A stretch of 64,000 nt of DNA from Candidatus Glassbacteria bacterium (GCA_963752515.1 CAVVYO010000002.1:21362-85361), one strand, 5' to 3'; positions 4,105 through 58,700 are shown, numbered from the stretch's first letter. A program made the numbers and translations. The notes: generated from the sequence alone by a model not told the origin.

Positions 4105-4144
4105 GGACCCCTCTTCCACTTTCCAAAACTTTTTCGATAGTTGT
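4105..4144 (+). repeat. intergenic repeat family, K module only (truncated copy) in the rrf2-hcp spacer
   Basis: GGACCCCTCTTCCACTTTCCAAAACTTTTTCGATAGTTG is nearly identical to the K module at 35730-35772. It is followed by a ...GGCAGTCAGGAAGG segment that resembles the post-K module of other copies. Confidence 0.7.
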
Positions 4145-4328
4145 CGCTGAATATCGGACCGCAAGTCGGGATCGGACAGGCTCCGCAGGGTCTGCCGCGA
4201 GGGGCGGCAGGTGGCAGTCAGGAAGGCCGTTTTCGTTCACCGCGCTCCCGCCCTTTCCCGGGCGGGAGTCATTCACCGCCCAGACGGCGCCCGGGACCCG
4301 GGGCCGTCGCGCGAAAGGAGTCGTGAGC

Positions 4329-5981
4329 ATGAGCATGTTCTGCTTCCAGTGCGAACAGACCGCCAAGGGCACGGGCTGCACCGTGACCGGGGCCTGCGGC
4401 AAGGACCCGCAGACCGCCAGCCTGCAGGACCTGCTGGTGCATGTCGCCGAGGGGATCGCCGTGTACGCCCACCGGGCGCGCCGGCTCGGGGTGCGGGACC
4501 GTGGACTGGACCTGTTCGTGGTCGAGGCGCTGTTCACGACAGTCACCAATGTCAATTTCGATCCCCAGTCGGTCGAGCAGTGGGTGCGCCGGGGCGCGGA
4601 GCTGATCGGGCGGGCGCGGGCGCTGTATGAGCAGGCCGCGCTCCAGGCCGGCCAGAAGCCGGAGCGGCTGGTGGGCGGCCCGTCCAACTGGGCTCCCGCC
4701 GGGGATTCCGCCGGGCTGCTGCGCCAGGCCGAGGCGATCGGCATCGCCCGGCGGCTCCAGGCCCACGGCCAGGATGTCGCCGGCCTGCAGGAGCTGATCA
4801 TGTACGGCTTGAAAGGGATGGCCGCCTATGCCGACCATGCCCAGGTGCTGGCAGTGGAGAAGGAGGAGGTCTACGGCTTCTTCCACGAGGCGCTGGACTT
4901 CCTGGCCGGCGAGCCCTCCGAGCTGCAGCCATTGGTGGAGATGGCGCTGCGGGTGGGCCAGGTCAACCTCGAGGTGATGGGGATGCTGGATGCGGCCAAC
5001 ACCGGCGCCTACGGGCACCCGACGCCGACCAAAGTCCGGGTGACCCCGCTGCGGGGCAAGGCGATCCTGGTCTCCGGCCATGACCTGCGCGACCTGGCGG
5101 ACCTGCTGGAGCAGACCGCCGGCAAGGGGATCAAGGTCTACACCCACGGCGAGATGCTGCCCTGTCACGGCTACCCGGAGCTGAAGAAGCACCCGCATCT
5201 GGCGGGCAACTACGGCGGGGCCTGGCAGGACCAGCGCAAGGAGTTCGAGGCTTTCCCCGGCGCGATCCTGATGACCACCAATTGCATCCAGCAGCCCCGG
5301 GAGAGCTACCAGGGCCGGATTTTCACCAGCGGGCTGGTGCAGTGGCCGGGGGTCAGGCACATCGCGGGCCGCGATTTCACCCCGGTGATCGAGGCCGCGC
5401 TGGCCGCGCCCGGATTCGCCGAGGATGGCGAGCCGCAGGAGATCCTGGTCGGCTTCGGGCACAACGCTGTCCTGGGGGCGGCCGACCAGGTGATCGACCT
5501 GGTCAAGCGCGGGAAGATCCGCCGCTTCTTCCTGGTGGGCGGCTGCGATGGGGCCAAATCCGGGCGCAACTACTACACCGACCTGGCGCAGCAGATCCCG
5601 GACGACTGCGTGATCCTGACCCTGGCCTGCGGCAAGTTCCGCTTCAACAAGCTCGAGTTCGGCGCGATCGAGGGGCTGCCGCGCCTGCTGGACCTGGGCC
5701 AGTGCAATGATGCCTTCTCGGCGGTGAAAGTGGCCCAGGCCCTGGCCGGAGCGTTCGGAGTGGGGGTCAACGAGCTGCCGTTGTCGCTGGTGCTCTCCTG
5801 GTACGAGCAGAAAGCGGTCTGCATCCTGCTGACCCTGCTGCACCTGGGGATCAGGGACATCCGGCTCGGGCCGAGCCTGCCGGCGTTTGTCGGCCCGAAC
5901 GTGTTCCAGGTGCTGATCGAGAACTTCAACCTGATGCCGATCAGCACGCCGCAGGCCGACCTGCAGGCGATCCTGGGCTGA
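4329..5981 (+). CDS. hcp: hydroxylamine reductase / hybrid-cluster protein
   Basis: MSMFCFQCEQTAKGTGCT is the diagnostic N-terminal Cys motif. About 550 aa, as expected for Hcp. AAAGGAG lies 8 nt upstream of ATG 4329; track start is GTG 4323. Confidence 0.95.
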   Translation: MSMFCFQCEQTAKGTGCTVTGACGKDPQTASLQDLLVHVAEGIAVYAHRARRLGVRDRGLDLFVVEALFTTVTNVNFDPQSVEQWVRRGAELIGRARALYEQAALQAGQKPERLVGGPSNWAPAGDSAGLLRQAEAIGIARRLQAHGQDVAGLQELIMYGLKGMAAYADHAQVLAVEKEEVYGFFHEALDFLAGEPSELQPLVEMALRVGQVNLEVMGMLDAANTGAYGHPTPTKVRVTPLRGKAILVSGHDLRDLADLLEQTAGKGIKVYTHGEMLPCHGYPELKKHPHLAGNYGGAWQDQRKEFEAFPGAILMTTNCIQQPRESYQGRIFTSGLVQWPGVRHIAGRDFTPVIEAALAAPGFAEDGEPQEILVGFGHNAVLGAADQVIDLVKRGKIRRFFLVGGCDGAKSGRNYYTDLAQQIPDDCVILTLACGKFRFNKLEFGAIEGLPRLLDLGQCNDAFSAVKVAQALAGAFGVGVNELPLSLVLSWYEQKAVCILLTLLHLGIRDIRLGPSLPAFVGPNVFQVLIENFNLMPISTPQADLQAILG

Positions 5982-6011
5982 GGATAAGGCAATTCTGGAA
6001 AAGCACACGAA

Positions 6012-6043
6012 GGGCGCGGAACCATGACGGTTCCGCGCCCTTT
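6012..6043 (+). terminator. GC-rich hairpin downstream of hcp (terminator-like)
   Basis: GGGCGCGGAACC-atgac-GGTTCCGCGCCC followed by a short TTT. Outer pairing AAGCAC..GTGCTT extends the stem. Confidence 0.5.
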
Positions 6044-6058
6044 CCGTGCTTATCTGTT

Positions 6059-6512
6059 CCGGGGGGAGGGAGGAAAACCTTTTCCAAAAGGTTTCCTCCC
6101 TCTCCCCGGGCCCCTCTCCTACCTTCCCAAACTTTTTCGCTAGTTTGCTGCTGGAGGTTGGACCTCCAGTCAGGATGGGCCTGCCAACATCGTAGGGGCC
6201 GGCCCCCGGGCCGGTCCGCCTTTGCCTGCGGGCGCGGCCTGCCGCGCCCCTACCGGCCAACCCGATCATCATCGGTCAAGCTCAAGCCGACCAGCCCGGG
6301 AAGCAGCGGTTGTGTTTTTGGAGGGGGGTGGCGGGGCGGTCTTTGGGCCGCGGCTGGAGGCAGGAGGGAGCGGTTTTTTATGAAGTACCCGCGGCGGCTG
6401 TTAAAGACCTCAGTGCAACTCCAGCTTCGCGGCCCTGCTGTAAAAGACTCTTGCTACTGGTCACAGCAGGAGAAAAATCCGCAGGATTTACGGGATTAGC
6501 AGCGGGCTGGAG
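6059..6512 (+). repeat. intergenic repeat family, long copy (type 2: H + K + nested palindromes + 3' module)
   Basis: H hairpin CCGGGGGGAGGGAGGAAAACCTTTTCCAAAAGGTTTCCTCCCTCTCCCCGG, then K (CCCAAACTTTTTCGCTAGTTTG). Shares GTAGGGGC...GCCCCTACCGGCCAACCCGA, CGGTCAAGCTCAAGCCGACCAGCCCGGGAAGCAGCGGT and GGGCCGCGGCTGGAGGCA with the copy at 35679-36390. Confidence 0.85.
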
Positions 6513-6651
6513 CTTCCCCCGGAACAGACGGATGAACCCTTCTTCCTGCTCCGAGGGTCAGCATGGCTCTTGACCTTTCCCCGCTGATTCGGTAGCATAA
6601 TAGCATCTAAAGTGGCAGTCACCAGTCCCTTCCCTGTCGGAGATGCCACCG

Positions 6652-7311: not shown

Positions 7312-7998
7312 ATGAAACGAATCAGGCAGTTGATCCTGCCGGCGCTGATGGCGCCGTTGCTCCTCGCTTTGCTCCCGGCCGCCTGCGGCAATGACAGCGG
7401 CCCGACCGGAGTCGAGGGCAACCTGGTCACGGTCGGGACCCTGACGCTGGGGCTGGACGGCTCCAACATCCCGATCGACTCGACCAACAGTGAGCGGGCT
7501 TTCGATCTGCTGATCGCCCCGGTCTACGAGACCTTCAACAAGGGCCACGCCGACCTGGCGGTGGGCACGCTGCTGGCCGCTGTCACCGATTTAGAAGGCC
7601 GGGTCAGCGGGCACGTCGAGGTCTCCGGCACGGTCAGCTCCAACCAGAGCCCCACCACTTTCGATTTCACCGCCACTTTCCATGATTTCTCCAACGATGC
7701 CAAGCTGTACCTCGGCGGCCGGTTGCGCTACGCGGGCAGCATCGCCTTCAACGCGCAGACCGGGCAATTCGGCACGATCCTCAACATCAGCGGCGATGGG
7801 CTCGGCTTCACCGGCACCTACCGTGGCAACATCCGCTTCAACAACCTGCGGATTTACGCCGACCGGGATGGGATCGACCAGTACAACGGCGCGGTGGTGT
7901 TCATCCCCGCCGGGCAGAGCCCTCAATTCACGCTCACGCTGACTCCCCCGCCGGGACCGGGGGGGCCGGGAGGTCCGCCGGATGGCACCGATGAATAG
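7312..7998 (+). CDS. lipoprotein of unknown function (paralog 1)
   Basis: Internal ATG with AAGGTGG upstream. MKRIRQLILPALMAPLLLALLPAACGNDSG gives a signal peptide plus lipobox. The C-terminal half aligns with the next gene. Confidence 0.7.
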   Translation: MKRIRQLILPALMAPLLLALLPAACGNDSGPTGVEGNLVTVGTLTLGLDGSNIPIDSTNSERAFDLLIAPVYETFNKGHADLAVGTLLAAVTDLEGRVSGHVEVSGTVSSNQSPTTFDFTATFHDFSNDAKLYLGGRLRYAGSIAFNAQTGQFGTILNISGDGLGFTGTYRGNIRFNNLRIYADRDGIDQYNGAVVFIPAGQSPQFTLTLTPPPGPGGPGGPPDGTDE

Positions 7999-8638
7999 TC
8001 GAGCGCACCGAGGCGATGGCCGCCGGAGGGCCCTGCCCGCTTTGCTGCTGGCGGCGCTGCTGGTGATTGCCTGCGGCGGTTCCGGGGAAACCCTCACCGA
8101 GCCGGATCTGCCTGCCGACTGGCTGGCCGAGGGCGTCCTCACCCTCGGCCAGGGCGCGGAGTTCCCCAATGTCGCGGTCAACCAGGCCAATGCGGCCGGC
8201 GCCCAGCAACTGGTGGTGGGCGAGCTCTACAGCGCCTTTGTCAAGGGCATGACCCTGCTGGACGAGATCGAGGGCGCGGCGGTGGTCCCGGGCGGGCGGG
8301 AGGGCCGGCTCCGGCTGGATGGCCGGGTGACAGTGAGCGAGAACCAGGCCGCCGGCGATTTCACCGGCCGGCTGTTCGACTACAGCGAGGGCGGCAACCT
8401 GATCCTCGGCGGGGGACTGCGCTACCGGGGGACAGTGGTCTCCGATCCATTGACCGGCCAGTTGCAGACAGTCCTCGAGCTCGAGGGCGCGGTGCGATTC
8501 GCCGGCCAGTTCGGCGGCACGATGCGGTTCGGCCAGGTCCGCCTGACCCGCGACCCCTCGGGCGCGTTCGCCTCCGATGACTCGGTCTCGGTCACCTCCG
8601 GGGGAGTCACTTTCACCAGCCGTTTCCAGTTGCGATGA
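7982..8638 (+). CDS. lipoprotein of unknown function (paralog 2)
   Basis: Lipobox LVIACGGSG. LILGGGLRYRGTVVSDPLTGQLQTVLELEGAVRFAGQFGGTMRFGQVRL aligns with LYLGGRLRYAGSIAFNAQTGQFGTILNISGDGLGFTGTYRGNIRFNNLRI of the upstream gene. Overlaps that gene by 17 nt. Confidence 0.7.
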   Translation: MAPMNSRAHRGDGRRRALPALLLAALLVIACGGSGETLTEPDLPADWLAEGVLTLGQGAEFPNVAVNQANAAGAQQLVVGELYSAFVKGMTLLDEIEGAAVVPGGREGRLRLDGRVTVSENQAAGDFTGRLFDYSEGGNLILGGGLRYRGTVVSDPLTGQLQTVLELEGAVRFAGQFGGTMRFGQVRLTRDPSGAFASDDSVSVTSGGVTFTSRFQLR

Positions 8639-8665
8639 GGCGGGGACCCCCCGCCTTTTGATTTT
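8639..8665 (+). terminator. rho-independent terminator after the lipoprotein pair
   Basis: GGCGGGG-acc-CCCCGCC immediately after the stop codon, followed by TTTTGATTTT. Confidence 0.8.
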
Positions 8666-8780: not shown

Positions 8781-8830
8781 CCGGGCGCGGGAGGAAAACC
8801 TTCTTCAAAAGGTGTTCCTCCCGCGCCCGG
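8781..8830. repeat. intergenic repeat family, isolated degenerate H hairpin
   Basis: CCGGGCGCGGGAGGAAAACCTTCTTCAAAAGGTGTTCCTCCCGCGCCCGG has the same architecture and AAAACCTT..AAGGT core as the H modules. A second GC hairpin lies at 8716-8751. Confidence 0.6.
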
Positions 8831-8886
8831 ATCAATGGCGGTTGTGTCAAACCGGGATGTGCTCACGACGGAGGGGAGGCGCGCCG

Positions 8887-9834
8887 ATGGCGACTGAACG
8901 CGCGGGCGACGGGGCCGGCTATCTGCTGCCGTTGGCGGTCCCGCTGGGAGAGGATTCCGCCGTGGCCCGGGGACACCTGGAGCGGGTCAACTCCCGGCTG
9001 ACGGGCCTGGGGGTGCGGGTCCTGTTGCGCCGGGCCACGGTCGATGGGCGCAGTTTCGTGCCCTGCTACCTGTTCCGTCTCCCCGCCGGGCGCCGGGATG
9101 ACCAGCAGGCCCGCCTGCTGGCCGAATCGTTCTTCCTGGCGCTGGCCCAGCGGCTGGACTGCCGTTTCCCGATCGGCCGGCTGGACAATCCCTGCCTGCC
9201 GCTGGAGATAGCCGGAGAGCACGAGGCCCTGGAGCTGCGGGAACTGGCGCGGGGCTTTCCCCGGGCCGGGATCGCGGAAGGGACCCCGGAGCCGGCGGTC
9301 CCGCGCGAGGAGGGTCGGGAGAGTGTCGGGCTGGAGGCTTACGAGTTTGCCTGGGAGCTGGTCCCGGTGATCAGCGGTGACCGCTCCTTGCGGCGGGGCT
9401 TGCGGCGGCTGATGGACAGCCGGGAGCTGTGCGGGGCCTCCCGGCGCGAGCTGGCCGGGTTGCTGGAGCAGGGCCAGGGCGCCGACCGCAAGCTGCTGGA
9501 GAAATGCGCCGGGCCGGCGCTGGAGGCGGCGCGGGAGGGATTGGCTCTGCTGCTGGGCGAGGAGCCGGGCCGGGGAAAGGCGTTCTTTTCCCAGCTCGAG
9601 GCCCGGGAGGTGGGCGAGGCCGCCCTGCAGGCGATCGAGGTCCGGCTGGACTGGCGCCAGTTGTTGCGGGCGCTCAACCCGGAGGAGGCCGGGCCGGCCC
9701 TGGAGGGGGAGAGCCTGACCGAGCGGCTGGTGGAGCTGTATTTCTGCCAGGCCGGGGGCAGGGAGCTGGCGCTGGCGCTGCTGCGCCGCAAGCGGCTGTG
9801 GGCGGGGCTGGGAAGGCTGCTGCGGGAGGGGTGA
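8887..9834 (+). CDS. hypothetical protein (315 aa)
   Basis: ATG 8887 preceded by GGAGGGGAGG. The track ORF starts at 8689, but that N-terminus is translated repeat sequence. No domain recognised. Confidence 0.5.
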   Translation: MATERAGDGAGYLLPLAVPLGEDSAVARGHLERVNSRLTGLGVRVLLRRATVDGRSFVPCYLFRLPAGRRDDQQARLLAESFFLALAQRLDCRFPIGRLDNPCLPLEIAGEHEALELRELARGFPRAGIAEGTPEPAVPREEGRESVGLEAYEFAWELVPVISGDRSLRRGLRRLMDSRELCGASRRELAGLLEQGQGADRKLLEKCAGPALEAAREGLALLLGEEPGRGKAFFSQLEAREVGEAALQAIEVRLDWRQLLRALNPEEAGPALEGESLTERLVELYFCQAGGRELALALLRRKRLWAGLGRLLREG

Positions 9835-9930: not shown

Positions 9931-10686
9931 TCAATCATCACCAATTCCATAAATTTCCCTTAATACGCCCAGTGCTTCACTCAAAGTTATGCGGCGCAAC
10001 CCCAGATCTGATAGATTCAAGGATGTTTCTTGTTTCATGGCTTGCAAAAATTTGCGAAAGTCTGTCTTGACTGAATCGGGAAGAGTTATTGCCTCGGTGG
10101 GATTGAGCAATTGATAGAGCTTGAAAACATCATTCTTGTGTTTGTTGACGTCATTGCTATGCGCGTTTTTTCTTCCGGATAAGTCGAGCCAGGCACGCGC
10201 TTTGAGAGGAATCAGATGAGTTGGCGCAACGACCGGCAGGCCTTCAAGTTCCTGTTTTCCAGAATGAATGAAGTGATAGTAGTCATTATCAAGGAGAATG
10301 GCGGATAGGCTGGAGATTTCTTCATCTGTAGGTATCGGTGTGAGATGACTCCCATCCGCAATATCAAGAATATCGGGCTTGCGGGAAAACAATTCCAGCA
10401 TCTCGGGATAGGCCTCATCTTGCGGCTTGAAGAACCGGTAAAACAGCCTTCTGCCAGTGCTTTTCTGGCGATTGTCGTACTTGCCATCACGGACAAAAGC
10501 CCAGAACGCTTTTAAAAATTTGTCATTCAAGACTTCTACACACAAGACAATATCCAAATCCTTGGTGGAACGGAACGACAGTCCGGCAGCTTCCATGGCA
10601 AGAGAACAGGCGGTTCCACCGATAAGAACGTAGCAATCGGATAATTCTGAAAAATGGGTCTTAAAATATTCGAGACCTCTTACCAT
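9931..10686 (-). CDS. nucleotidyltransferase, AbiEii/AbiGii-type toxin (type IV TA / abortive infection)
   Basis: 251 aa. LIGGTACSLAM...FRSTKDLDIVL fits the GG(T/S)A...(S/T)xDLD nucleotidyltransferase motif of the AbiEii (DUF1814) family. Low-GC relative to the flanks. The start overlaps the upstream gene stop by 7 nt. Confidence 0.75.
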   Translation of the reverse strand: MVRGLEYFKTHFSELSDCYVLIGGTACSLAMEAAGLSFRSTKDLDIVLCVEVLNDKFLKAFWAFVRDGKYDNRQKSTGRRLFYRFFKPQDEAYPEMLELFSRKPDILDIADGSHLTPIPTDEEISSLSAILLDNDYYHFIHSGKQELEGLPVVAPTHLIPLKARAWLDLSGRKNAHSNDVNKHKNDVFKLYQLLNPTEAITLPDSVKTDFRKFLQAMKQETSLNLSDLGLRRITLSEALGVLREIYGIGDD

Positions 10687-11606
10687 GATAGATTCCCCAT
10701 CATCTCTTCGAGAGCAGCCTGTACCCTCTCATCTGAGTTCTGTTGCAAGGTCAGGTAAAGGGAGAATTTATCAACCACGCCATCTTGGGCAAACATTTGC
10801 GGGGAATAGCTCCAGATTTCCATTTCACAGGCTTCATGGTCCTCCGGGGGCAGTTCGACAGTATCGCCCAGCCGCTTCAGCCAACTCCACTTCTTCAAAC
10901 TGATAGCATAAACCGGCCGATTGGGCGGTGACAGCAGGCTGTAGTCGGCCAAGGCAGACAACCCGGCTTTAATTCCCGGCCAGTGGTCGGCAGAGGGATC
11001 ACGTATCCAAAGCCGCTTCTTGACCGGGCTGCGCATGAATTCACGCGCTTTCTCCCACAATTCTCTTGAGGGCTCACTGAAACACAGCACTCGTTCCCGG
11101 CCTTCCGTGAGGACTTTACCCAAGCCAACAGATTCAAGTTCATCGAATGTCCGCGAGAGAGTCATTGACGAATAATCCATGTTGGCGGACAACCCAGAAG
11201 GGGTATACTTTTGCTTGGCGCCATGGATAATGGCATGCAGCACTACTGCCTGGGTTGATGGGCTGAACTTGGGGCTGCTGCCGCGAATCTTCTTGTAGTG
11301 CTCCCGCAGATCCACTCCAAGCATGGGCAAGTACATCTGATTGCCTGGTACCACAAACGGCACCTTGTGCTCGATCAAACGCTTACGGTTGTATGCGGCG
11401 ATTGCCTGGTGCACATAGATGAACAAAACACCGGCACCTTTTCTGGACCTGTGAGAGATCGGCTTGCAGACATTGGCGGGAGTCACCTGGTTTCGCCAGC
11501 GATCCACCATCAGACACCCCCAGGCATAGCGATCCCAAGAGACACACTTGGAAGAACAGATAGAAGCTGTTGAAGATAGTGCGGAAGCTCTGCTTCCCCC
11601 TTCCAA
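10680..11606 (-). CDS. putative cognate wHTH antitoxin/regulator (AbiEi-like)
   Basis: Sits immediately upstream of, and is translationally coupled to, the AbiEii-type gene. Winged-helix-like segment MDYSSMTLSRTFDELESVGLGKVLTEGRERV. The start is uncertain: an ATG at 11680 opens a 56-aa ORF in another frame (MNSTMQAFEALFSE...), so the N-terminus may be frameshifted. Confidence 0.5.
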   Translation of the reverse strand: MEGGSRASALSSTASICSSKCVSWDRYAWGCLMVDRWRNQVTPANVCKPISHRSRKGAGVLFIYVHQAIAAYNRKRLIEHKVPFVVPGNQMYLPMLGVDLREHYKKIRGSSPKFSPSTQAVVLHAIIHGAKQKYTPSGLSANMDYSSMTLSRTFDELESVGLGKVLTEGRERVLCFSEPSRELWEKAREFMRSPVKKRLWIRDPSADHWPGIKAGLSALADYSLLSPPNRPVYAISLKKWSWLKRLGDTVELPPEDHEACEMEIWSYSPQMFAQDGVVDKFSLYLTLQQNSDERVQAALEEMMGNLSW

Positions 11607-11921
11607 ATCCCGAGGGGAGGACCAGAGATATCAAGCGTCTCGCTGAATAGTGCCTCAAACGCTTGCATTGTGCTGTTCATATCGAGCGCCCCACGCTAAC
11701 GCTGAAATGCACGGTAACAAGGAGAGTGTTAATGAGCAAAAACAATGTTATATACTTGCCTTGCGCTCCGCAAGCTTCTCGTCCAGGTTACGGTGATGGT
11801 TGTTGATGCGGTCGCCTTGTGATCTTATTTTGTATCCTCCCGGGCGGCGTTCGCAACCTCAGCGCCGCCCCTTGCGTTGTGGTAAAGGATTGTCCCTGAA
11901 CGGTGATCCGGCATCCATCCC

Positions 11922-12005
11922 CAATCGATGAAAAGTTTGGAAGGGGGCCAGGGGGGAGCCCCAGGGGGAGCGGAAAAACTTTTTAAAAAGTTTTCCGCTC
12001 CCCCC
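11922..12005 (-). repeat. intergenic repeat family, short copy (K then H, inverted orientation)
   Basis: CAATCGATGAAAAGTTTGGAAGGGGGCC followed by GGGGGAGCGGAAAAACTTTTTAAAAAGTTTTCCGCTCCCCC. TATAAT at 12008-12013 follows directly. Confidence 0.8.
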
Positions 12006-12046
12006 TCTATAATGATTTTAGTGTCTTTCAGAAAGGTTTCCGCAAG

Positions 12047-12834
12047 ATGCCCGATCAGCAAAAAATCTTGGATTACCTGGCGCTGGAGTGAAAGGTCGGC
12101 CGGGCGCCGGCGTTGTTCCTCGATTTCGATGGGACCCTGGCCCCGTTGGCCCGTATCCCCTACGAGGCGGTTTTCCCGGAGGAGAACCTGTCGCGCGGTG
12201 GAGCGCCTGCTGCCGTGCTGCCCCCTGGCGATCATCAGCGGCCGCTCGCTGGAGAGCGTGCGGGCGGCGGCGGGGATTCCCGGCATTTCCTATGCGGGCA
12301 GCCACGGGTTCGAGCTCGCCCTGCCGGATGGCCGGGTGCACCAGGTGGGCGCGGAGTTCCTGCCGCGGCTGGACCGGGCGGAGGTCGAAGCGCGGGAGCT
12401 GGCGGAGGGGGTCGCGGACACCTGGGTCGAGCGCAAGCCATTCTCCCTGGCCCTGCATTACCGCGATGGCGCGGCGCGGGAGCCCGCCCGGCTGGAGGCG
12501 CTGGTGGAGCGGGTGCGAGTCGGCAATGGCCCCCTCAAGCTTGTCCACGGCTAGCTGCTCCTCCAGCTGCAGTCGGCTCTGGAAACTGGCACGAGGGACG
12601 GGCGCGCGCGCGGCCGCCCTCGGTGCTGGCCGCATAGACCGCTGGAAGCTGCTCCCGCTCTACCTGGGCGATGACACCTCCGATGAGGATGCCTTCCGCG
12701 CCGTGGCCGGCCGGGGACTGGGAGTGCTGGTGGCCGAGGAGCCTCGTCCCAGCGCCGCCGCCTTCCGGCTGCGCGACACGGTTCAGGTGCGCGCCATGCT
12801 GGAGGGGCTGGCCCGGCTGCTCAGGCCGGTTTGA
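12047..12834 (+). pseudogene. otsB: trehalose-6-phosphate phosphatase, disrupted
   Basis: OtsB signatures are spread over three frames. FLDFDGTLAP is in frame 2, AIISGRSLESV..YAGSHGFEL..KPFSLALHYR in frame 0 ending at TAG 12552-12554, and LYLGDDTSDEDAF in frame 1. There is also an in-frame TGA at 12089-12091 between ATG 12047 and the FLDFDGT motif. Confidence 0.75.
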
Positions 12835-12851
12835 CTGAGCAACTGCATTGT

Positions 12852-12975
12852 CCGGGGGGAGGGAAGAAAACCTTTTGAAAAAAAGGTTTTCTTCCTCCCC
12901 CCGGACCCCCCTTCTTCTTTCCCAAACTTTTTCGCTTGTTCAAGGCTGAATGGCGGGCAGCAGTCAGGAGCAGCG
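12852..12975 (+). repeat. intergenic repeat family, short copy (H + K + CAGTCAGGA segment)
   Basis: CCGGGGGGAGGGAAGAAAACCTTTTGAAAAAAAGGTTTTCTTCCTCCCCCCGG, then CCCAAACTTTTTCGCTTG, then GGCGGGCAGCAGTCAGGAGC. Starts 18 nt after the otsB stop. Confidence 0.85.
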
Positions 12976-13006: not shown

Positions 13007-13034
13007 TTGACTGCGCCGCGAACCGCTGTAAATT
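13007..13034 (+). promoter_or_regulatory. sigma70-like promoter candidate for the permease gene
   Basis: TTGACT, 16-nt spacer, TAAATT, about 115 nt upstream of ATG 13149. Confidence 0.35.
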
Positions 13035-18045: not shown

Positions 18046-19203
18046 ATGGGGACCAGGATTGCCTCGCGGGCGGCGGGGCTTCGCCAGTCGGCGATCCGCG
18101 CCATGACCCGGCTGGCGGTCGAGCGCGGCGGAGTCAACCTTTCGCAGGGCCTCTGCGACCTGCCGACCCCGGAAGTGGTGCGGCAGGAGGCCTGCCGGGC
18201 GATCGAGGAGGGGTGCAACACCTATGCGCCGATGAACGGCACCGCCGGGCTGCGCCGGGCGATCGCCGCCAAGCTGGAGCGTTTCAACCATCTGCGGGTC
18301 GATCCGGAGCGCGAGCTGACTGTCACCAGCGGGGCGACCGGGGCCCTGGCCTGCGCCCTGCTGACGCTGCTGGAGCCCGGGGAGCGGGTGCTCGCTTTCG
18401 AGCCGTTCTATGGCTATCACCTCAACCTGGCGCGCCTGCTGGGGTTCGGCACTGTCACCCTCCGGCTGCGGCGGCCGGACTGGGCGATCGATTTCGCGGA
18501 GCTGGAGCGGCTGCTGGCGGGCGGCACCGTGCGGGCGCTGCTGCTCAACACCCCGGCCAACCCCTGCGGCAAGGTGTTCCGCCGGGAGGAGCTGGAGTGG
18601 ATCGCCGCCCTGTGCCGGCGCTACGATATCATGGCGATCACCGATGAGATCTACGAGCACATCGTGTTCGATGGCCGGGAACACCTGAGCCTGGCCGCCC
18701 TGCCGGGGATGCAGGGGCGCACGGTGACCATCTCCGGTTTCTCCAAGACCCTGGCGATGACCGGCTGGCGGCTGGGCTATGTCGCCGGGCCCGCGGAGGT
18801 GATCGAAAAGCTCACGCTGATCTCGGACCAGCTCTACATCTGCGCCCCGCACCCGCTGCAGGCCGGGGTGGAGCGCGCCCTGCCGCTCCTGGAGGAAAAC
18901 TACTACCGCGAACTGCCCGCCCGTTACCGGGCCAAGCTGGACATCCTGGCCCCGGCCCTGGAACAGGCCGGTTTCGAGCCCCTGCCATTGGAGGGGACAT
19001 ATTTTCTGCTGGCCGGGTACGAAAAATGCTATGGAAAGCTCGGGTCGATGGCGGCCGCCGAGCGGCTGCTGACGGAGCGGCTGATCGCCGCGGTGCCGGC
19101 CGAGAGCTTCTTCTCCGACGGCCACGATCAGCCCTGGCTGCGCTTCTGCTTCGCCAAGGAGGACTGCGAGCTGGAACGCGCCGCCCGCCTGCTCGGAGGA
19201 TGA
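18046..19203 (+). CDS. class I/II PLP-dependent aminotransferase
   Basis: Internal ATG with GGAGGAG upstream. IRAMTRLAVERGGVNLSQGLCDLPTP, NTPANPCGKVF and the SGFSKTLAMTGWRLGY Lys motif. Confidence 0.85.
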   Translation: MGTRIASRAAGLRQSAIRAMTRLAVERGGVNLSQGLCDLPTPEVVRQEACRAIEEGCNTYAPMNGTAGLRRAIAAKLERFNHLRVDPERELTVTSGATGALACALLTLLEPGERVLAFEPFYGYHLNLARLLGFGTVTLRLRRPDWAIDFAELERLLAGGTVRALLLNTPANPCGKVFRREELEWIAALCRRYDIMAITDEIYEHIVFDGREHLSLAALPGMQGRTVTISGFSKTLAMTGWRLGYVAGPAEVIEKLTLISDQLYICAPHPLQAGVERALPLLEENYYRELPARYRAKLDILAPALEQAGFEPLPLEGTYFLLAGYEKCYGKLGSMAAAERLLTERLIAAVPAESFFSDGHDQPWLRFCFAKEDCELERAARLLGG

Positions 19204-19231
19204 TGCCCAATCCGACAGCAATGCTATTTTT

Positions 19232-19745
19232 CCGGGGAGCGGGAGGAAACCTTTTGAAAAAGGTTTTCCTCCCTCTCCCCGGACCCCTCTCCCACTTTCC
19301 CAAACTTTTTCGCAAGTTTGATGTGCAGGTGGGATCAGCATTTCAGGATGGGGAACAGTCTTTTGCTTTTCACCCCCAGCGCCCGGAACGGGCGCTCCGC
19401 GGCAGCAACTGGATGAGCTACTCTGTAGCAGCGGTTACAGAACTGGAAATACCATGGCAGGCAGTAGTGGAGGCAAGAACTGACTGGCAGATGCGCGTCA
19501 GCGCTGCCCACGCATCAGGGCAGCGTAATGATCCCGCGATTACAAGCTACTGGAAGAAGACTTCAGTGGTGGGCGAGTTTTGCGCCGCAAAGACTTTTGC
19601 TTCTTTTGGTCACAAAAGAAGAAAAACAATGACAATCAATGAGATAGCGGCATAGCCAGGAGTTTTCTGGCAGCCGGCCGTTCAAGGTGATTTTAGTGCC
19701 GCCGGCCGGCGAGTTTTGCGCCGCCAGGGCTCTTTCCCGGGCTGG
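19232..19745 (+). repeat. intergenic repeat family, long type-1 copy A (core 19232-19662 plus a partly duplicated 3' module)
   Basis: H 19232-19282, K 19283-19320, internal hairpin 19378-19396, GGCAGATGCGCGTCAGCGCTGCC, GGCGAGTTTTGCGCCGC, GTCA-loop hairpin 19600-19621, end ...GCATAGCCAGGAG 19662. A second GGCGAGTTTTGCGCCGC lies at 19707-19723. Confidence 0.9.
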
Positions 19746-21439: not shown

Positions 21440-21468
21440 GACCGACCCTGCAACAAAGGCCGGGATTC

Positions 21469-21950
21469 CCGGGGGAGGGAGAAAACCTTTTGGAAAAGGT
21501 TTTCTCCCTCCCCCGGACCCCCTCTCTCTTTCCCAAACTTTTTCGATAGTTTGATGTGCAGGTGGCTCTATCAATCAGGATAAGCTATTCACGGAGCGAG
21601 AGAGTAGTTCTTTGCCTTTCACCCTCAGCGCCCGATCAGGGCGCTCCGCGGCAGCAACTGTATGAGCTACACCGAGGCAGCGGTTACAGCACTCATCATC
21701 CCATGATGAACTGTAGGGGAGGCAAGAACCGACTGGCAGATGCGCGTCAGCGCTGCCCAACCTGATGGGTAGCGTAAAGATCGCACGATTACCAGCGGCC
21801 AATTGAAGATTATCAGTGGTGGGCGAGTTTTGCGCCGCACAGACTTTTGGTCCTTTTGGTCACAAAAGGACAAAAAAAATAAAGAAGTTGGAGCATAGCA
21901 GGGAGACCGAGAATCACCGGCAGGATGCCCTGCCCCCCAGGCTCTTTCCC
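21469..21950 (+). repeat. intergenic repeat family, long type-1 copy B
   Basis: Collinear with copies A and C. H 21469-21516, K, hairpin 21627-21645, GTCA-loop hairpin 21850-21871, end GCATAGCAGGGAG 21905. It is followed by GAATCACCGGCAGGATGCC, which also occurs at 36372-36390. Confidence 0.9.
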
Positions 21951-26537: not shown

Positions 26538-26558
26538 AAAACTAAAGATGGGTGTTCA

Positions 26559-26983: not shown

Positions 26984-27007
26984 TCTCGGATAGCAGGCGG
27001 GGTAAAA

Positions 27008-32610: not shown

Positions 32611-32659
32611 AAAAAGATCCTCATCTGCTGTTGTCATCCAGGGATGAAAGAGGCCGCGG

Positions 32660-35650: not shown

Positions 35651-35678
35651 TACCGATTTGACGACAAAGGCGGCTTGT

Positions 35679-49892: not shown

Positions 49893-49984
49893 GCGGCGTG
49901 GGGTGACTGACCCGCCGGCTGAGATTCAAGGTGATGACAGTACAGCGCTGACTTACTGCTCTGCTGCTGTCCAACCCACTTGAC

Positions 49985-50056
49985 AAGGGAAAAAGTTTTG
50001 GAAAGTGGGGGGCCCGGGGGGAGGAAAACCCTTTCCAAAAGGGTTCCGCCCCCCGG
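49985..50056 (-). repeat. intergenic repeat family, short copy (K then H, inverted)
   Basis: AAGGGAAAAAGTTTTGGAAAGTGGGGGGC followed by the imperfect hairpin CCGGGGGGAGGAAAACCCTTTCCAAAAGGGTTCCGCCCCCCGG. Confidence 0.75.
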
Positions 50057-50096
50057 AGCAGCCGTTCAGGGTAAAATTGCGGGCAAGGGAGGCATC

Positions 50097-52013: not shown

Positions 52014-52841
52014 ATGAAAGTCGATCTGCACATCCACAGCACTTACTCCGATGGCAGCCTGGGGCCGCGCAAGATCGTGGCCCGGGTGATCGAGCGCCAG
52101 CTGTCGGTGATCGCGATCACCGATCACGACACGGTCAACCACTTCCCCGAGATGCGCGAGCTGGCCGGGGAGGGCGGGCCGACCGCGCTGCTGGCCGGGA
52201 CGGAGTTCAGCAGCCTGTTCCATGACCGGGAGATCCACATCCTGGGCTACGACCTGGATCCGGAGGATCAGGAGCTGCGCCGCCACCTGGAGCGGGTCCG
52301 CCTGCGAAGAGAGGAGCGGGCCCACCGCATCCTGGAACGGCTGGAGCGCAGTAACGTGCGCATCCCGCCCAGCGACCTGGAGCTGATCGAGGAGGGGGCG
52401 ACAGTCGGGCGGGTGTTCATCGCCCAGTTGCTGCTCGGCCATGGCTATGTCAGCTCGATCAACGAGGCTTTCGACCGTTTCCTCGGAGCCCAGGGCAGCG
52501 CGTTTGTCCCTTACGAGCTGACCGATGCCCGCCAGGTGATCGCCATGATCCGCCAGGCCGGCGGGATCAGCATCTTCGCCCACCCCAACGCCCAGGAGCT
52601 GGAGAGCATGGGGCCGGCCCTGGCGGCCGAGGGGCTGGAGGGGGCCGAGGGCTACCGCCCGGGACTGGGCGGCCCCGAGGGCCGCGCGGTCCGTCGGCTG
52701 ATCGAGAAGCAGGGGCTGCTGGTCACCGGCGGCTCGGACTGGCACTCCGACAATGGCCGGTTCCCCCTGGGCGAGTTCTACCTCGAGATCGACCGGGTCC
52801 GGGAGTTCCTGGAACGGATCGGCGTTTCCGTCGGCCACTGA
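52014..52841 (+). CDS. PHP-domain metal-dependent phosphoesterase (TrpH/YciV-like)
   Basis: MKVDLHIHSTYSDGSL, AITDHD, GGISIFAHP, GSDWH. Confidence 0.9.
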   Translation: MKVDLHIHSTYSDGSLGPRKIVARVIERQLSVIAITDHDTVNHFPEMRELAGEGGPTALLAGTEFSSLFHDREIHILGYDLDPEDQELRRHLERVRLRREERAHRILERLERSNVRIPPSDLELIEEGATVGRVFIAQLLLGHGYVSSINEAFDRFLGAQGSAFVPYELTDARQVIAMIRQAGGISIFAHPNAQELESMGPALAAEGLEGAEGYRPGLGGPEGRAVRRLIEKQGLLVTGGSDWHSDNGRFPLGEFYLEIDRVREFLERIGVSVGH

Positions 52842-52869
52842 GCCCACTCAGAACCAAAGATCAACTGCT

Positions 52870-53690
52870 CCGGGGGGAGGGAGCAAACCTTTTGAAAAAG
52901 GTTTTTCTCCCTCCCCCCGGGCCCCCCTTCCCCTTTCCCAAACTTTTTGCTAGTTGAAAGATGGTTGTCGGGCAGTAGGCTGGCAGGATTTGGCCGTAGG
53001 GGCGGGCAGGCCCATCTGTTCCAACAAAATCGGCGATAAGTGGGATTGGTGCGACCGGGGGGTTGGGTCAGCAGCTCCGGTCGGGGCCGGCCCCCGGGCC
53101 GGCCCTGAAAAACACAACCCCCGGTTTCCCCCTTTGCTAAGGGGGATCAACAGCACTGCCGGCCCGCGGCTCCCACGGGCGCGGCATGCCGCGCCCCTAC
53201 GATGGGCTCCGGGCCTCCAACCTGATTCCATCGCACCTGCTTTCCCTGTTTTTGCCTTTGCCCCCAGCGCCCCTCCGGGGCGCTCCGCGACCGAGGTCGG
53301 GGCCGGAAAGCTGACACTCCCCGGCGGATGAGGCGGCGCCCGGGCATGACACCCCCCGGCAGCTGAAGCTGCCACCCCCCTCCAGGGGGGAGTAACAACG
53401 CTACACCCAACCGGTTGCGGCAACTCGACAGGTGCAGCCGGCACAGTCCCCCCTGGAGGGGGGTGGCCCCGCGGCAGGCGGGGCCGGGGGGTGTAAGGCC
53501 CGGGTACCGCACCAGCGGCCGGGAGGCGGCCGGCGAGTTTTGCGCCGCAAAGGCTCTTTGCGCCACTTTCCAGCCACAGAAAGTGGAAAAAAATAAAGAA
53601 GTTGGAGAACGGCAGAGGGCCGGGGAAACACCCCATCCCACGGTCCTCCCCGCCCCTTTCCGGAACTTTTTGGAGAGTTGGATGCGATGA
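52870..53690 (+). repeat. intergenic repeat family, longest mosaic copy (type 3), followed by an extra K-like module
   Basis: H 52870-52920 and K 52921-52955. Distant arms GTAGGGGCG (about 53005) and CGCCCCTAC (about 53195). Hairpin TCCCCC-tttgctaa-GGGGGA 53127-53146. GGCGAGTTTTGCGCCGC plus hairpin CCACTTTC-cagccaca-GAAAGTGG 53563-53586. K-like CCCCTTTCCGGAACTTTTTGGAGAGTTGGATG at 53652-53685. Confidence 0.8.
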
Positions 53691-53727: not shown

Positions 53728-54564
53728 ATGACTGAACTGGAAGGTACTCCTGGCGCCCATCCCCCCGGCCTGAACCCCCGGGAGGCGCTGCTGGCCCTGG
53801 CCGCGGCGCTGGCGCTGCTGTTGGCCGTAGTGGCGCTGTTCGGCGGCGAGGCTCCCGCCGGGCTGCCCGGCGGCCGGTTCACCTGGCTGGCCCTGCTGGA
53901 GCTGGCCGCCCTGGGCCCGCCGCTGGCCCTGCCGCTCGTGCGCCGCCACTCGCTGCGCTTTCTGTTGCGGGAGAGCCTGCTGATCCGCCCGGCCCCGCCG
54001 GCGGCGGTGGCGGGCGGGCTCCTGCTGGGAGCGGGCCTGGTGCTGCTGGCCCCCTGGTTCGAGGGCTGGCAGGCCCGGCTGACACCGCCCCCGCCGGGGC
54101 TGGCCGAGGCCGCCTGGCGGTTTGCCCGGCTGGGGCCCGGAGAGTCCGCGGCCTGGGCTTTCTGCTGCCTGGCCGTGGCGCCGTCCCTGCTGGAGGAGGC
54201 CTTTTTCCGCGGGCTGCTGCTGCGTCCGGCGCTGGAGCGCTGGAGCCGTCCGGCGGCAGTGGCCGGGATCGGCCTGCTGTTCGCGCTGTTTCATCTCAGC
54301 CCCTGGCACCTGCCGGCCTACTGGCTGATCGGGATGCTGCTGACCTGGGCCGCCGCGCGCGCCGGATCGGTCCTGCCCGCGCTGGCGCTGCACCTGGCCA
54401 ACAATGGGCTGTCGCTGCTGGCGGTGAATCTTCCCGCCACCGCCCTGGCCGGCTGGGTGCGCGGGACTGCCCCGGTGCCGCCCGGGCTGGCGGCCCTCGG
54501 CGCGGCGCTGGCGCTCGCCGGCGCGGCCCTGGTGCGCCGCTCCACCCGGCCCGGCCCCGCCTGA
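53728..54564 (+). CDS. CPBP-family intramembrane glutamic endopeptidase (CAAX protease-like)
   Basis: LLEEAFFRGLL, FALFHL and ALHLANN motifs in a polytopic protein. Internal ATG chosen, because the track N-terminus is repeat sequence. Confidence 0.8.
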   Translation: MTELEGTPGAHPPGLNPREALLALAAALALLLAVVALFGGEAPAGLPGGRFTWLALLELAALGPPLALPLVRRHSLRFLLRESLLIRPAPPAAVAGGLLLGAGLVLLAPWFEGWQARLTPPPPGLAEAAWRFARLGPGESAAWAFCCLAVAPSLLEEAFFRGLLLRPALERWSRPAAVAGIGLLFALFHLSPWHLPAYWLIGMLLTWAAARAGSVLPALALHLANNGLSLLAVNLPATALAGWVRGTAPVPPGLAALGAALALAGAALVRRSTRPGPA

Positions 54565-54590
54565 TGCCAATTTAACGGCAAAGGCTTTTT

Positions 54591-54712
54591 CCGGGGGGAG
54601 GGTGGAAATCCCGTTGGGCGGGATTTCCGCCCTCCCCCCAGGGATGCCTTCCCCCCGGGGATGCCTTCCCCCCATCCCCCCTTCCACTTTCCAAACATTT
54701 TCGCTGGTTCAC
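54591..54712 (+). repeat. intergenic repeat family, short copy with a re-coded H hairpin
   Basis: CCGGGGGGAGGGTGGAAATCCCG-ttgg-GCGGGATTTCCGCCCTCCCCCC keeps the outer stem but replaces the AAAACCTTTT core with a different complementary pair. Tandem duplication GGGATGCCTTCCCCCC x2 (54641-54673), then K (CCACTTTCCAAACATTTTCGCTGG). Confidence 0.8.
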
Positions 54713-54835
54713 TGCCGGATGTCGGCCGGCCCTTCCGGAAAATGAAACTATTTCCCGCCGACAGTTGTCCTAACAGAACAGGTGTGCCCGAAAAAATTCC
54801 GCTCCGCGCTCAGTTCACCCAGTTGGAGGTAATGG

Positions 54836-57292: not shown

Positions 57293-57295
57293 CCC

Positions 57296-57400
57296 TCAGC
57301 CTTTCTTTTTCACTACCTTCTTCAGCTTGTGGGGACGGGTCTTGCCGTACGACCCGTTGTAAATTTTCCCCCGGCGCGAGCGCTTGTCGCCTTTGCCCAT
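57296..57400 (-). CDS. 30S ribosomal protein bTHX
   Basis: My own minus-strand translation gives MGKGDKRSRRGKIYNGSYGKTRPHKLKKVVKKKG (34 aa). This matches the MGKGD(K/R)(K/R)(S/T)(K/R)RGK... THX signature. GGAAGGAG lies 6 nt upstream. Too short for the ORF track. Confidence 0.8.
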   Translation of the reverse strand: MGKGDKRSRRGKIYNGSYGKTRPHKLKKVVKKKG

Positions 57401-57597
57401 GCCAATCTCCTTCCCTTTAGCGGAGTTACCTGTTAATTTGTCGGGAGGTGCGCCCAGCCGGCAGATTGCGGCGGCCGGGCTCCCGCTGGCTTAGCGGTGG
57501 AAAAATACAGCATTTGGAACCGGCGGGCAAGGGTCTTGTCCCCGGGATGGTCATCGGGCGCCCGGCCGGAAGGAGGCGGTCCTTGCCATTGCGGCGG

Positions 57598-58536
57598 ATG
57601 CTCAGGCAGCACTGGATGGTGGCCGGGATCGCGGTGGTCGCGCTGTGGGGCTATTGGCTGCCCGCGGCCGGGGAGCTGGCCGGCCGCCACCTGTCCTGGC
57701 TGGTGGGTACGTTGATGTTGATGATGGGCCTGGGAGTGGGCTTCCGAAGGCTGCGGCGGCGGATGGCGGCCTGGCGGCCGAACCTGCTGGCGATCGGGCT
57801 GGTCTACCTGCTGGCTCCGCTGTTGTCCTGGCTGGCCGGGCGGTGGCTCTACGGTGGCCGGGGCGAGGTTTTCACCGGGCTGATGCTGGTCGGCACCACC
57901 TCCACCACCCTCTCGAGCTGCATCGTCTACACCCGGCTGGCCGGCGGGGATGAGGCCCTGGCGCTGTGGCTGTCGGTGACCTCCACCCTGCTGTGCACCC
58001 TGGTCCAGCCCTTGCTGCTGGCGCTGGCCCTGGGCGCGGCGGTCCCGGTCCCGGCCGGGATGCTGATCACACGGCTGGCGATGGTGCTGCTGCTGCCGCT
58101 GACCCTCGGGATGCTGCTGCGCGAGTTGCTGGGCGAGGAGCGGGTGGCGCCGGTCGGGAGCTATGTCACCCGGGGGGCGGCGCTGATCATCCTGATCGTG
58201 CTGATGGCCTCGGTGGCGGAGGGACGGGAGCTGCTCGGCAGTTGGCGCAGCCTGCCGGTGCTGGGGCTGGTGGCCGGGCTGCACCTGCTGCTGCTGGGCG
58301 GGGCGGCGCTGGGGGCGCGCCTGCTGGGCTTGAGCCGCGCCGAGGGGATCGCCGTGCTGTTCTGCGGCACGCAGAAGACCCTGCAGATCCCGGCCTACCT
58401 GGCGATCCGGGTGCTGGGAACCCCGGCCGCGGCGCTGGCCCCGGTGCTGTTCCATGTCTTCCAGCTGGTGCTGGACTCGCTGCTGGTCTCCCGCCTCGCG
58501 GGCCGGACAGGGGTGACGGACCCCCCGGGGCCATGA
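57598..58536 (+). CDS. bile acid:sodium symporter (BASS/SBF-like) family transporter
   Basis: Polytopic. MLMMGLGVGF, LVGTTSTTLSSCIVYTRLAGGD and FCGTQKTLQIP are typical of SBF-like/YfeH proteins. Start uncertain (57547 or 57598). Confidence 0.75.
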   Translation: MLRQHWMVAGIAVVALWGYWLPAAGELAGRHLSWLVGTLMLMMGLGVGFRRLRRRMAAWRPNLLAIGLVYLLAPLLSWLAGRWLYGGRGEVFTGLMLVGTTSTTLSSCIVYTRLAGGDEALALWLSVTSTLLCTLVQPLLLALALGAAVPVPAGMLITRLAMVLLLPLTLGMLLRELLGEERVAPVGSYVTRGAALIILIVLMASVAEGRELLGSWRSLPVLGLVAGLHLLLLGGAALGARLLGLSRAEGIAVLFCGTQKTLQIPAYLAIRVLGTPAAALAPVLFHVFQLVLDSLLVSRLAGRTGVTDPPGP

Positions 58537-58559
58537 ACGGCTGCCTCTTGCCAGGCTGG

Positions 58560-58700
58560 AGATTGCACTGCCGGTGTCGTGCGATACTGAATTGCTGTTC
58601 GATCTACAGCCATCAACCAGCGAAAAAGTTTGGGAGGGCGGGAGGGGGGATCGGGGGGAGGGCGGAAAACCTTTTTCAAAAGGTTTCCGCCCTCCCCCCG
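58560..58700 (-). repeat. intergenic repeat family, short copy (post-K segment, K, H; inverted)
   Basis: The reverse complement of 58570-58620 (GGTTGATGGCTGTAGATCGAACAGCAATTCAGTATCGC) parallels AGTTTGATGTGCAGGTGGGATCAGCATTTCAGGATGGGG of copy A. K (reverse) 58611-58651, H 58652-58700. Confidence 0.8.

Follow-up and report, generated by a model that had tools for sequence, protein, structure and literature searches.

A modular, palindrome-rich intergenic repeat family in a Candidatus Glassbacteria bacterium and its relatives in Desulfolutivibrio

What kind of sequence recurs in the intergenic spacers of a 64,000-nt stretch of DNA from a Candidatus Glassbacteria bacterium (GCA_963752515.1 CAVVYO010000002.1:21362-85361; hereafter the window), and how did it come to lie there? 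A preliminary description had listed 14 intergenic loci of one element with a core of two modules, the hairpin H and the motif K, and had likened it to repetitive extragenic palindromic (REP) sequences and bacterial interspersed mosaic elements (BIMEs) or to miniature inverted-repeat transposable elements (MITEs). The present analysis yielded a repeat family of defined anatomy with covarying hairpin arms that is an insertion relative to related bacteria, follows a placement rule beside stop codons, is vertically retained at an orthologous site and, judged by sequence similarity, has homologs in a second phylum. The copies are read, with a probability of about 0.55, as a lineage-amplified new family of non-autonomous palindromic repeats of the REP, REPIN (hairpin-forming REP doublet) or BIME kind. 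From the same data we infer how the unit may transpose, by which type of enzyme and with what effect on RNA.

Census and anatomy of the repeat unit

The covariance model R1, which was built on H and K and run on the window with filters off, recovered all 14 loci. Its sole further match, at 53593-53685 on the + strand, was weak (15 bits, E 0.0019), overlaps the annotated start of the CAAX-protease open reading frame (ORF) and may be a very decayed copy or else a chance hit. The K motif was matched ten times in the window at no more than three mismatches, whereas 100 dinucleotide shuffles gave no match, and the arm motif of H was matched 17 times, as against 6.2 times on average and at most 13 times in shuffles. 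According to a self-BLAST of the window, the listed spacers hold most of the repeated DNA outside paralogous genes, and the family accounts for about 6-7% of the 64 kb. The copies diverge from each other by 8-30% and their flanks are unrelated.

As described before, both orientations occur. Eight copies are forward (6059, 12852, 19232, 21469, 26559, 35679, 52870 and 54591) and four are reverse (11964, 32607, 50064 and 58697), while the remaining two are a decayed copy consisting of H only (8781) and a copy with K, T and a collapsed H (4105). None of the copies interrupts a coding sequence, all of them being located between ORFs with coding-type G+C content at the third codon position (GC3). 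The loci given as 32150, 49985 and 58560 are real, but these numbers denote left spacer edges, and the H-K core is reversed there. The copies and the mosaic modules adjoining them are as follows (M3 is a hairpin module described below).

4039-4207, + strand: degenerate copy with K (4115-4136) and T, H collapsed symmetrically to CCCGG-CTTGAAA-CCCGG; R1 core 4039-4149, 21.6 bits, E 6e-6; self-BLAST 4102-4207.
6038-6185, + strand: core copy L-H-K-T after a native hairpin (5998-6046) that is itself 3' of hcp; H 6059-6110, hairpin -44 kcal/mol; R1 core 6038-6151, 70 bits.
6190-6642, + strand: mosaic of further repeated modules; 6240-6372 corresponds to 35880-36018; M3-like hairpin 6392-6478.
8781-8831, no strand assigned: decayed copy, H only, -44 kcal/mol, outer stem GGGCGCGGG/CCCGCGCCC compensated relative to the consensus; R1 core 8783-8828, 29 bits, model positions 31-69.
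11918-12030, - strand: reverse copy with H variant 11963-12005 and K as reverse complement 11928-11950; R1 core 11918-12030, 41 bits.
12832-12974, + strand: short core copy; H 12852-12905, 18 nt past stop 12834; R1 core 12832-12946; sigma-70-like promoter 13007-13034 downstream.
19204-19700, + strand: long form, core with H 19232-19283 and a ~380-nt module of several hairpins; R1 core 19211-19324; second M3 piece 19703-19735.
21440-21925, + strand: long form; H 21469-21517; R1 core 21447-21557.
26538-27033, + strand: long form; H 26559-26606; R1 core 26536-26646.
32147-32490, no strand assigned: mosaic hairpin modules adjoining a reverse core; 32337-32376 corresponds to 53108-53147; z -4.1.
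32495-32640, - strand: reverse core copy; H 32563-32610; L end 25-50 nt before the next start codon; R1 core 32522-32632, 74.6 bits.
35651-35800, + strand: core copy; H 35679-35730, 29 nt past stop 35650; R1 core 35658-35771, 82.8 bits; fold -67 kcal/mol, z -4.3.
35800-36390, + strand: mosaic modules; 35880-36018 corresponds to 6240-6372; M3 twice, 36204-36260 and 36314-36370; z -3.9.
49950-50085, - strand: reverse core copy in the LepA-PGM junction; H 50016-50057; R1 core 49976-50077.
52842-52998, + strand: core copy; H 52870-52921, 29 nt past stop 52841; R1 core 52849-52961.
52999-53601, + strand: mosaic hairpin modules, the most over-structured spacer (z -5.5); M3 53527-53600.
54570-54735, + strand: core copy; H 54591-54641, inner stem AAATCCCG/CGGGATTT wholly different from that of the other copies, perfectly paired and fully compensated; tandem duplication of GGGATGCCTTCCCCCC (two units) at 54640-54672 between H and K; R1 core 54570-54715.
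58575-58724, - strand: reverse core copy separating SBF from the ABC-ATPase gene; H 58652-58701; R1 core 58609-58722.

An alignment of ten copies established the anatomy of the unit. H and K were both found as expected, but the unit of about 150 nt also includes two further modules, L and T, and has the order L, H, C-rich spacer, K, T. Module L (about 22 nt, TTTGACaACAAAGGCgGcTgtt) starts 0-10 nt from the upstream stop codon in the forward copies. Module H is a hairpin of 20-25 bp, nearly all of them Watson-Crick pairs, that forms one near-perfect palindrome of 45-55 nt with a loop of 2-4 nt; it is followed by the spacer GGaCCCCCCTtCC and by K, CTTTCCCAAACTTTTTCGnnAGTTTG. Module T is a weaker tail ending near TCAGGA, which is framed by a TTTTCG ... 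TCAGG bracket, as in the long form of the Desulfolutivibrio repeat described below. The folding energy of H ranges from -31 to -51 kcal/mol in all 13 H copies, and H hairpins make up ten of the 14 longest inverted repeats of the window.

The two arms of H covary. Arms of the same copy pair with a mean energy of -43.3 kcal/mol (cis), as compared with -33.0 kcal/mol for arms swapped between copies (trans), and not one of 20,000 permutations reached the observed mean. The compensated triplets include AGG/CCT, CGG/CCG, AGA/TCT, AAG/CTT and CGA/TCG. Since the stems are almost purely Watson-Crick, with four G.U among some 280 pairs, and fold as stably on one strand as on the other, the pairing weakly favours a palindrome acting at the DNA level over a structure of the RNA only. 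A stem between L and T that would enclose H and K was proposed by RNAalifold, but it was inconsistent on copy-by-copy inspection. Likewise, neither K nor L read in reverse provides a promoter with consistent -10 and -35 regions. The six-frame peptides of the element, used as protein queries, had no match at E<=1.

Stretches of up to about 820 nt had been attributed to single copies. They turned out to be mosaics of recurring hairpin modules, and the only larger form that recurs as a whole is that of about 440 nt, of which the three copies (19232, 21469 and 26559) share 79% identity. In this long form the core is followed by the ~380-nt module, in which local hairpins are strung together and ten pairs are compensated; a conserved small ORF was absent from the three copies. 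Pieces of this module and other hairpin modules are reshuffled in the spacers 5982-6642, 32147-32659, 35651-36390 and 52842-53601. After removal of the core, over-structuring persisted in six of seven long spacers (z -3.9 to -5.5), as against z +0.3 to -2.6 in four coding controls. The label mosaic and palindrome-rich is therefore accurate, because hairpin modules recombine among spacers that remain over-structured without the core.

One of the additional modules, M3, consists of GGCGAGTTTTGCGCCGC..GACTTTTG, followed by the hairpin CTTCTTTTG-GTCA-CAAAAGAAG and an A run. It occurs at 6443-6478, 19572-19640, 19703-19735, 21822-21893, 26888-26952, 36204-36260, 36314-36370 and 53527-53600, in several spacers directly ahead of the next gene, and changes in its hairpin are compensated. 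Its distance to the start codon is variable, and M3 matches neither a sigma-70 promoter nor a terminator.

Placement beside stop codons and insertion relative to Glassbacteria relatives

In the eight forward copies of the window a co-directional stop codon is located 7-31 nt upstream of H. For seven of them a distance of 18-30 nt had been given, and these values were correct when measured again (12834 to 12852, 19203 to 19232, 21439 to 21469, 26537 to 26559, 35650 to 35679, 52841 to 52870 and 54564 to 54591). A co-directional ORF also ends 7-31 nt before H in 22 of about 27 evaluable copies of the Desulfolutivibrio type, and the position of the L-H end near a co-directional stop codon is a placement rule common to both phyla. 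In the four reverse copies of the window the L-H end is situated 35-80 nt ahead of the next start codon.

With respect to transcription termination, which had been suggested as a function of H, the data are unfavourable to a canonical role. The sequence after H is C-rich, GGACCCCCCTTCC, and lacks a T tract. A terminator scan of the window never listed H, although it listed neighbouring hairpins. Canonical hairpin-plus-T terminators and sigma-70-like promoters adjoin the elements but are not inside them, the promoters being downstream. Moreover, two copies are found in junctions that measure 22-24 nt or overlap in relatives. H was accordingly rejected as a canonical intrinsic terminator. Terminator-like hairpins were noted at 5998-6046 (after hcp) and, with a T tract, at 8637-8657 (after the gene 7982-8638), which indicates that ordinary intrinsic terminators are used alongside the repeat. 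Insertion of the element inside a native terminator hairpin was likewise discarded, as the complementarity of the flanks was nearly the same in cis (-20.0 kcal/mol) and in trans (-19.4 kcal/mol).

The LepA protein of the window shows at most 82% identity to any protein of a large collection, the named proteins among the best matches are from Candidatus Glassbacteria, and the best GTDB representative found for the window was a metagenome-assembled genome (MAG) labelled Gemmatimonadales (77%). The bacterium is Glassbacteria-like and belongs to the Gemmatimonadota. Contigs of relatives (L001 and L081-L084) have a G+C content of 54-60%, compared with 67% in the window, and share with it the gene order GT, epimerase, WecA, NYN, TrkA, TrkH, LepA, PGM, PHP, CAAX, OEP as well as a second gene order, SBF, ABC, ABC, ExbB.

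The element was untraceable in these syntenic contigs by BLAST or R1. The LepA-PGM junction comprises 22-24 nt in L081-L083 but 205 nt in the window, where it is filled by a reverse copy, and the SBF and ABC ATPase genes, which overlap in L084, are parted by a reverse copy in the window. As the syntenic relatives lack the element and two tight junctions are expanded in the window, it was gained in the lineage of the window, and it is an insertion relative to the relatives. The tolerance of the element within formerly tight operon junctions argues against H as an unconditional terminator. A strict pattern of the H-K junction gave no match in the GTDB representative genomes and none in the JGI metagenomes, and this junction is specific to the lineage of the window.

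Upstream of the outer-membrane efflux (OEP) gene, a stretch of 25 nt (54737-54761) is 92% identical at the same position in L082 (15885-15909) and L083 (8868-8892), the rest of the spacer being unalignable; it is probably a conserved operator or promoter element.

Related repeats in Desulfolutivibrio and neighbouring features of the window

A pattern of the inner part of H only was used to scan the JGI metagenomes and detected 28 loci. Of these, 26 carry, 3' of a stop codon, the arrangement GCCTCCGGCGGCCA-GGGGGGAAACCTTTTGAAAAAGGTTTCCCCCC-TGGACCCCCCTTCGAAAACTTTGTCGCGCTTCGCG, and the other two (L086 and L113) represent a shorter variant from a marine MAG. As the search required the inner H only, homology is independently indicated by the shared GGCGGC of L, by the GGACCCCCCTTC spacer and by the AAACTTT..TCG that both have in K. 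BLAST aligned the element of the window with the Desulfolutivibrio type at about 75% identity over 80 nt (E ~1e-7), so that on sequence similarity the two families are homologous across phyla. The neighbouring proteins place the contigs in Desulfolutivibrio/Desulfovibrionaceae, and the complete genome of the isolate D. sulfoxidireducens (CP045506.1) contains a copy downstream of icd. A third variant was found in the marine MAG ORCQ01000004 (57% G+C). The family is thus not unique to this genome.

Three Desulfolutivibrio lineages share the copy downstream of icd, and their icd genes are 93-96% identical to that next to the copy in L111. Between these orthologous copies the stem has changed symmetrically and with compensation from AAACC-TTTT/AAAA-GGTTT to AACC-TTTTTT/AAAAAA-GGTT. 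The retention of this copy across three lineages together with the complementary changes of its arms indicates that copies are inherited vertically and that their symmetry is kept in place. At the orthologous icd locus of Solidesulfovibrio (icd 79% identical), the one locus examined in that genus, no copy was present in 21 kb, nor was one found in Desulfovibrionaceae of the gut or in some 80 further loci representing many phyla. The distribution is patchy, with multiple copies in three distant lineages and absence from the sampled sister lineages.

The Desulfolutivibrio repeat also has a long form, of about 250 nt, with six hairpins (L088-L116, for instance L101 2230-2510 on the - strand). Two H-like palindromes about 170 nt apart, each folding on itself, bracket the further hairpins, among which hp4, located between TTTTCG and CGATATCAGG, is hypervariable in sequence but always forms a perfect stem of 20-22 bp. 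The long modules of the window were not found in the Desulfolutivibrio family. A gene for an IS1595-family DDE transposase (IS, insertion sequence) was noticed at L119 14912-15832 (CP045506.1), 3.6 kb from the icd-downstream copy; a link to the repeat is not established.

In the preliminary description the sequence was not recognised as any described family, and the element corresponds to none in the sources searched. Rfam 15 gave no match at the gathering threshold, and at E<=1 only generic miRNA-type hairpins far below that threshold. The plasmid and phage collections held no real match, and IMG/VR a single one, an AT-rich chance palindrome. Literature searches by the sequence string of the element and for Desulfovibrio REP repeats returned nothing relevant; the Desulfolutivibrio family is likewise without description in these sources.

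By Pfam, the 50 scanned ORFs of the window represent ordinary housekeeping, polysaccharide-synthesis and transport genes. In agreement with the earlier claim, no transposase, reverse transcriptase or Cas protein was detected among them; the scan left aside five of the shortest GC3-supported ORFs, two of which are short reverse-strand ORFs overlapping TrkA. The ends of the window (1-2000 and 62001-64000) are poorer in G+C (57% and 62%) than the remainder, and the small ORFs 77-412 and 551-919 had no Pfam match. An island of low G+C content (about 50% versus 67%) at 9931-11606 on the - strand encodes an AbiEii-like nucleotidyltransferase toxin (9931-10686) and a partner of 308 amino acids without a Pfam match, and probably represents an AbiE toxin-antitoxin or abortive-infection pair that was acquired. 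The copies 8781 and 11964 flank this island in the nearest spacers, with the gene 8886-9834 separating 8781 from it.

Origin and possible function of the repeat

The element resembles the REP and REPIN systems that are associated with RAYT transposases (REP-associated tyrosine transposases) in Pseudomonas and Enterobacteria (Bertels and Rainey, PMC3116915, PMC3337134) in being extragenic, dense and hairpin-forming. The resemblance extends to the covarying arms, to variable parts in which pairing rather than sequence is conserved, to the symmetrical collapse of the palindrome, to vertical retention at orthologous sites and to a position mostly in the 3' flank of genes; both a variable yet paired spacer and symmetrical collapse have been described for REPINs (PMC3337134). 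In contrast to these systems, the element possesses the conserved asymmetric flanks L, K and T. BIMEs of E. coli, mosaics of palindromic units (PUs) or REPs with fixed extra-PU motifs, are similar in that distinct hairpin modules and linkers are reshuffled between intergenic spacers, but their sequence is unrelated, they belong to another phylum, and the element lacks their alternating Y/Z arrangement of PUs. The likeness to REP and BIME repeats that was seen at first thus holds for a dense, modular and palindrome-rich intergenic family. BOX elements of Streptococcus pneumoniae (boxA-boxB(n)-boxC) are also modular, strongly structured intergenic repeats of variable length that encode no protein, although they differ in sequence and in the rules of module order; they are not known to have a single dominant perfect hairpin or a rule of stop-codon adjacency. 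Intrinsic (Rho-independent) terminators share the GC-rich stem-loop soon after a stop codon but not the C-rich tail without a T tract; a canonical terminator often adjoins the element, and two copies are inserted in junctions that are operon-internal in relatives. An attC site of an integron was rejected as well, as H and K contain no RYYYAAC/GTTRRRY core sites, the window encodes no integrase and the relatives without the element have the same gene order. The element is neither a canonical terminator nor a classical MITE nor an attC site.

If the copies are non-autonomous repeats of the REP kind, the unit would have reached its many intergenic positions through the activity of an enzyme that acts in trans and is not encoded in the window. 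The likeliest candidate would be a structure-specific transposase of single-strand DNA, of the RAYT or IS200-IS605 type, recognising the hairpin. Copies persist mainly where the L-H end is just 3' of the stop codon of a co-directional gene, and an inserted copy is inherited vertically with its palindromic symmetry maintained. Forward copies are probably transcribed within the 3' untranslated region (UTR) of the upstream gene, where the hairpin could block 3' exonucleases or serve as a partial or leaky terminator or as an insulator between genes; co-option as such a 3'-UTR hairpin is probable.

Several points weigh against this assignment. REPs of enterobacteria and pseudomonads have a conserved GTAG-type tetranucleotide at their head, but such a head is absent from H, the consensus of which begins ..TTCCGGGGGGAGGG, and H is a single long perfect palindrome instead of two REPs that are short, imperfect and separated by a long spacer. 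Neither the window nor some 290 kb of related loci yielded a RAYT or any other transposase, according to Pfam on the ORFs of the window and a crude HUH...Y..NP motif scan of the window and the loci L086-L118. As REPIN-RAYT systems are reported, in at least one account (bioRxiv 10.1101/2022.05.22.493013), to be mostly vertically inherited, a near-identical H+K in two phyla is atypical, and the homology of the element across phyla marks a difference from them. In Desulfolutivibrio, the icd site was filled in all three lineages and the site in the MBOAT region in both contigs covering it, and Solidesulfovibrio was too diverged for defining the ends of the element. No high-identity pair of empty and filled sites was found, so that the ends, the target and the mobility are putative. 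Furthermore, a symmetric hairpin gives no reason for the strict co-orientation with the upstream gene, which would fit a function at the RNA level equally well, and the evidence from this genome comes from 64 kb only.

A purely RNA-level function is a serious rival, and this orientation rule is strong. L-H-K would then be a cis-acting 3'-UTR element transcribed with the upstream gene, its position and orientation being set by selection of the host instead of selfish spread, and could act as a factor-dependent or leaky terminator, a stabiliser, a processing site or a hairpin modulating the ribosome that terminates near the stop codon. The phylum-independent location of the L-H end 7-31 nt past a co-directional stop argues for this possibility, as do the C-rich, G-poor tail after H, which reads as rut-like (Rho utilization), and the retention at orthologous sites with compensated stem changes; Liang, Rudd and Deutscher (2015) reportedly found that an E. 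coli gene is translated less when a REP hairpin lies no more than ~15 nt from its stop codon. Nevertheless, four of 13 copies of the window have the reverse orientation, their H being 35-80 nt ahead of a start codon, G.U pairs are nearly absent, the two strands fold equally, and the element does not replace the canonical hairpin-plus-T terminators that adjoin it. Sister lineages manage the same genes without it, and a regulatory RNA with about 75-80% identity in two phyla that is absent from sister genera would not be normal. An exclusive RNA function is therefore considered distinctly less probable than a repeat of the REP kind, although the two are not mutually exclusive, co-option being the usual history of REPs. 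A still more tentative proposal, which we regard as doubtful, is that L-H-K represents either a horizontally transferable element with an undescribed mode of homing, oriented along transcription, to the first tens of nucleotides past a stop codon, for example by insertion coupled to the termination of transcription or translation or to single-strand structure there, or else a portable 3'-UTR module for tuning expression gene by gene that different phyla acquired and amplified. The uncommon features are the homology across phyla, as judged by sequence, and the co-oriented adjacency to stop codons, and on present evidence they do not call for a new category.

Derivation from a DDE-type insertion sequence is unlikely. 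In that case the arms of H would be abutted terminal repeats, or the unit of 150-250 nt a deletion derivative, and a parent transposase and target-site duplications would be expected. H can be read as left and right inverted repeats (IRL and IRR) with an interior of 2-4 nt, each end of the long form in Desulfolutivibrio carries an H-like palindrome, the patchy distribution across phyla is compatible with horizontal IS transfer, and an IS1595-family transposase is encoded near the L119 copy, with no connection between the two shown. Correia elements of Neisseria and other bacterial MITEs are also abundant small intergenic repeats of patchy distribution that can alter the transcript ends and expression of their neighbours. 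However, Correia elements have terminal inverted repeats of 26 nt and a TA duplication, whereas the conserved unit is asymmetric, L being unlike K and T, and its L end is not the reverse complement of the T end or, in the relatives, of the hp6 end. No direct repeats flank the nine long Desulfolutivibrio-type copies with sharp ends (those of the window copies are too fuzzy to judge), no parent element or transposase adjoins any copy of the window, and a strong orientation bias is unusual among DDE MITEs, so that the MITE alternative of the preliminary description was not borne out. Even less credence is given to the view that the long forms of about 440 nt (window) and 250 nt (Desulfolutivibrio) are structured noncoding RNA genes or leaders of polysaccharide genes, of which the short H+K copies would be decayed remnants. 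The three long copies of the window are indeed 79% identical and over-structured (z about -4) with ten compensated pairs, are located upstream of glycosyltransferase and sulfatase genes and lack a conserved ORF. Yet they have no Rfam match, their modules recombine freely beside unrelated genes (hemerythrin, CAAX protease, GT-DUF218) and are not common to the Desulfolutivibrio family, they form a string of local hairpins without long-range architecture, and they are framed by neither a promoter nor a terminator. An assembly duplication, already mentioned in the preliminary description, a chimera or an accumulation of chance GC-rich hairpins has practically no likelihood: the metagenome-type origin of the contig is the only point in its favour, whereas the copies are mutually different with unique flanks, the motif counts are far above those of shuffles, independent Glassbacteria contigs have the same gene order and homologous copies occur in the complete genome of an isolate.

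REP-type repeats have been well studied in Proteobacteria only, and Glassbacteria and Gemmatimonadota are barely sampled. Since Desulfolutivibrio is cultured and complete genomes are available, the moving enzyme, the stop-codon adjacency in one orientation and the effect on mRNA ends can be tested at the bench. In practical terms, spurious ORFs are inflated by the hairpins, which will also disrupt the assembly and binning of such genomes; R1 is usable for masking the hairpins. If the proposed reading is true, the sharing of this family across phyla, together with its absence from the sampled sister lineages, would represent an unusual horizontal spread for a class of repeats that is usually deemed to be vertically inherited.

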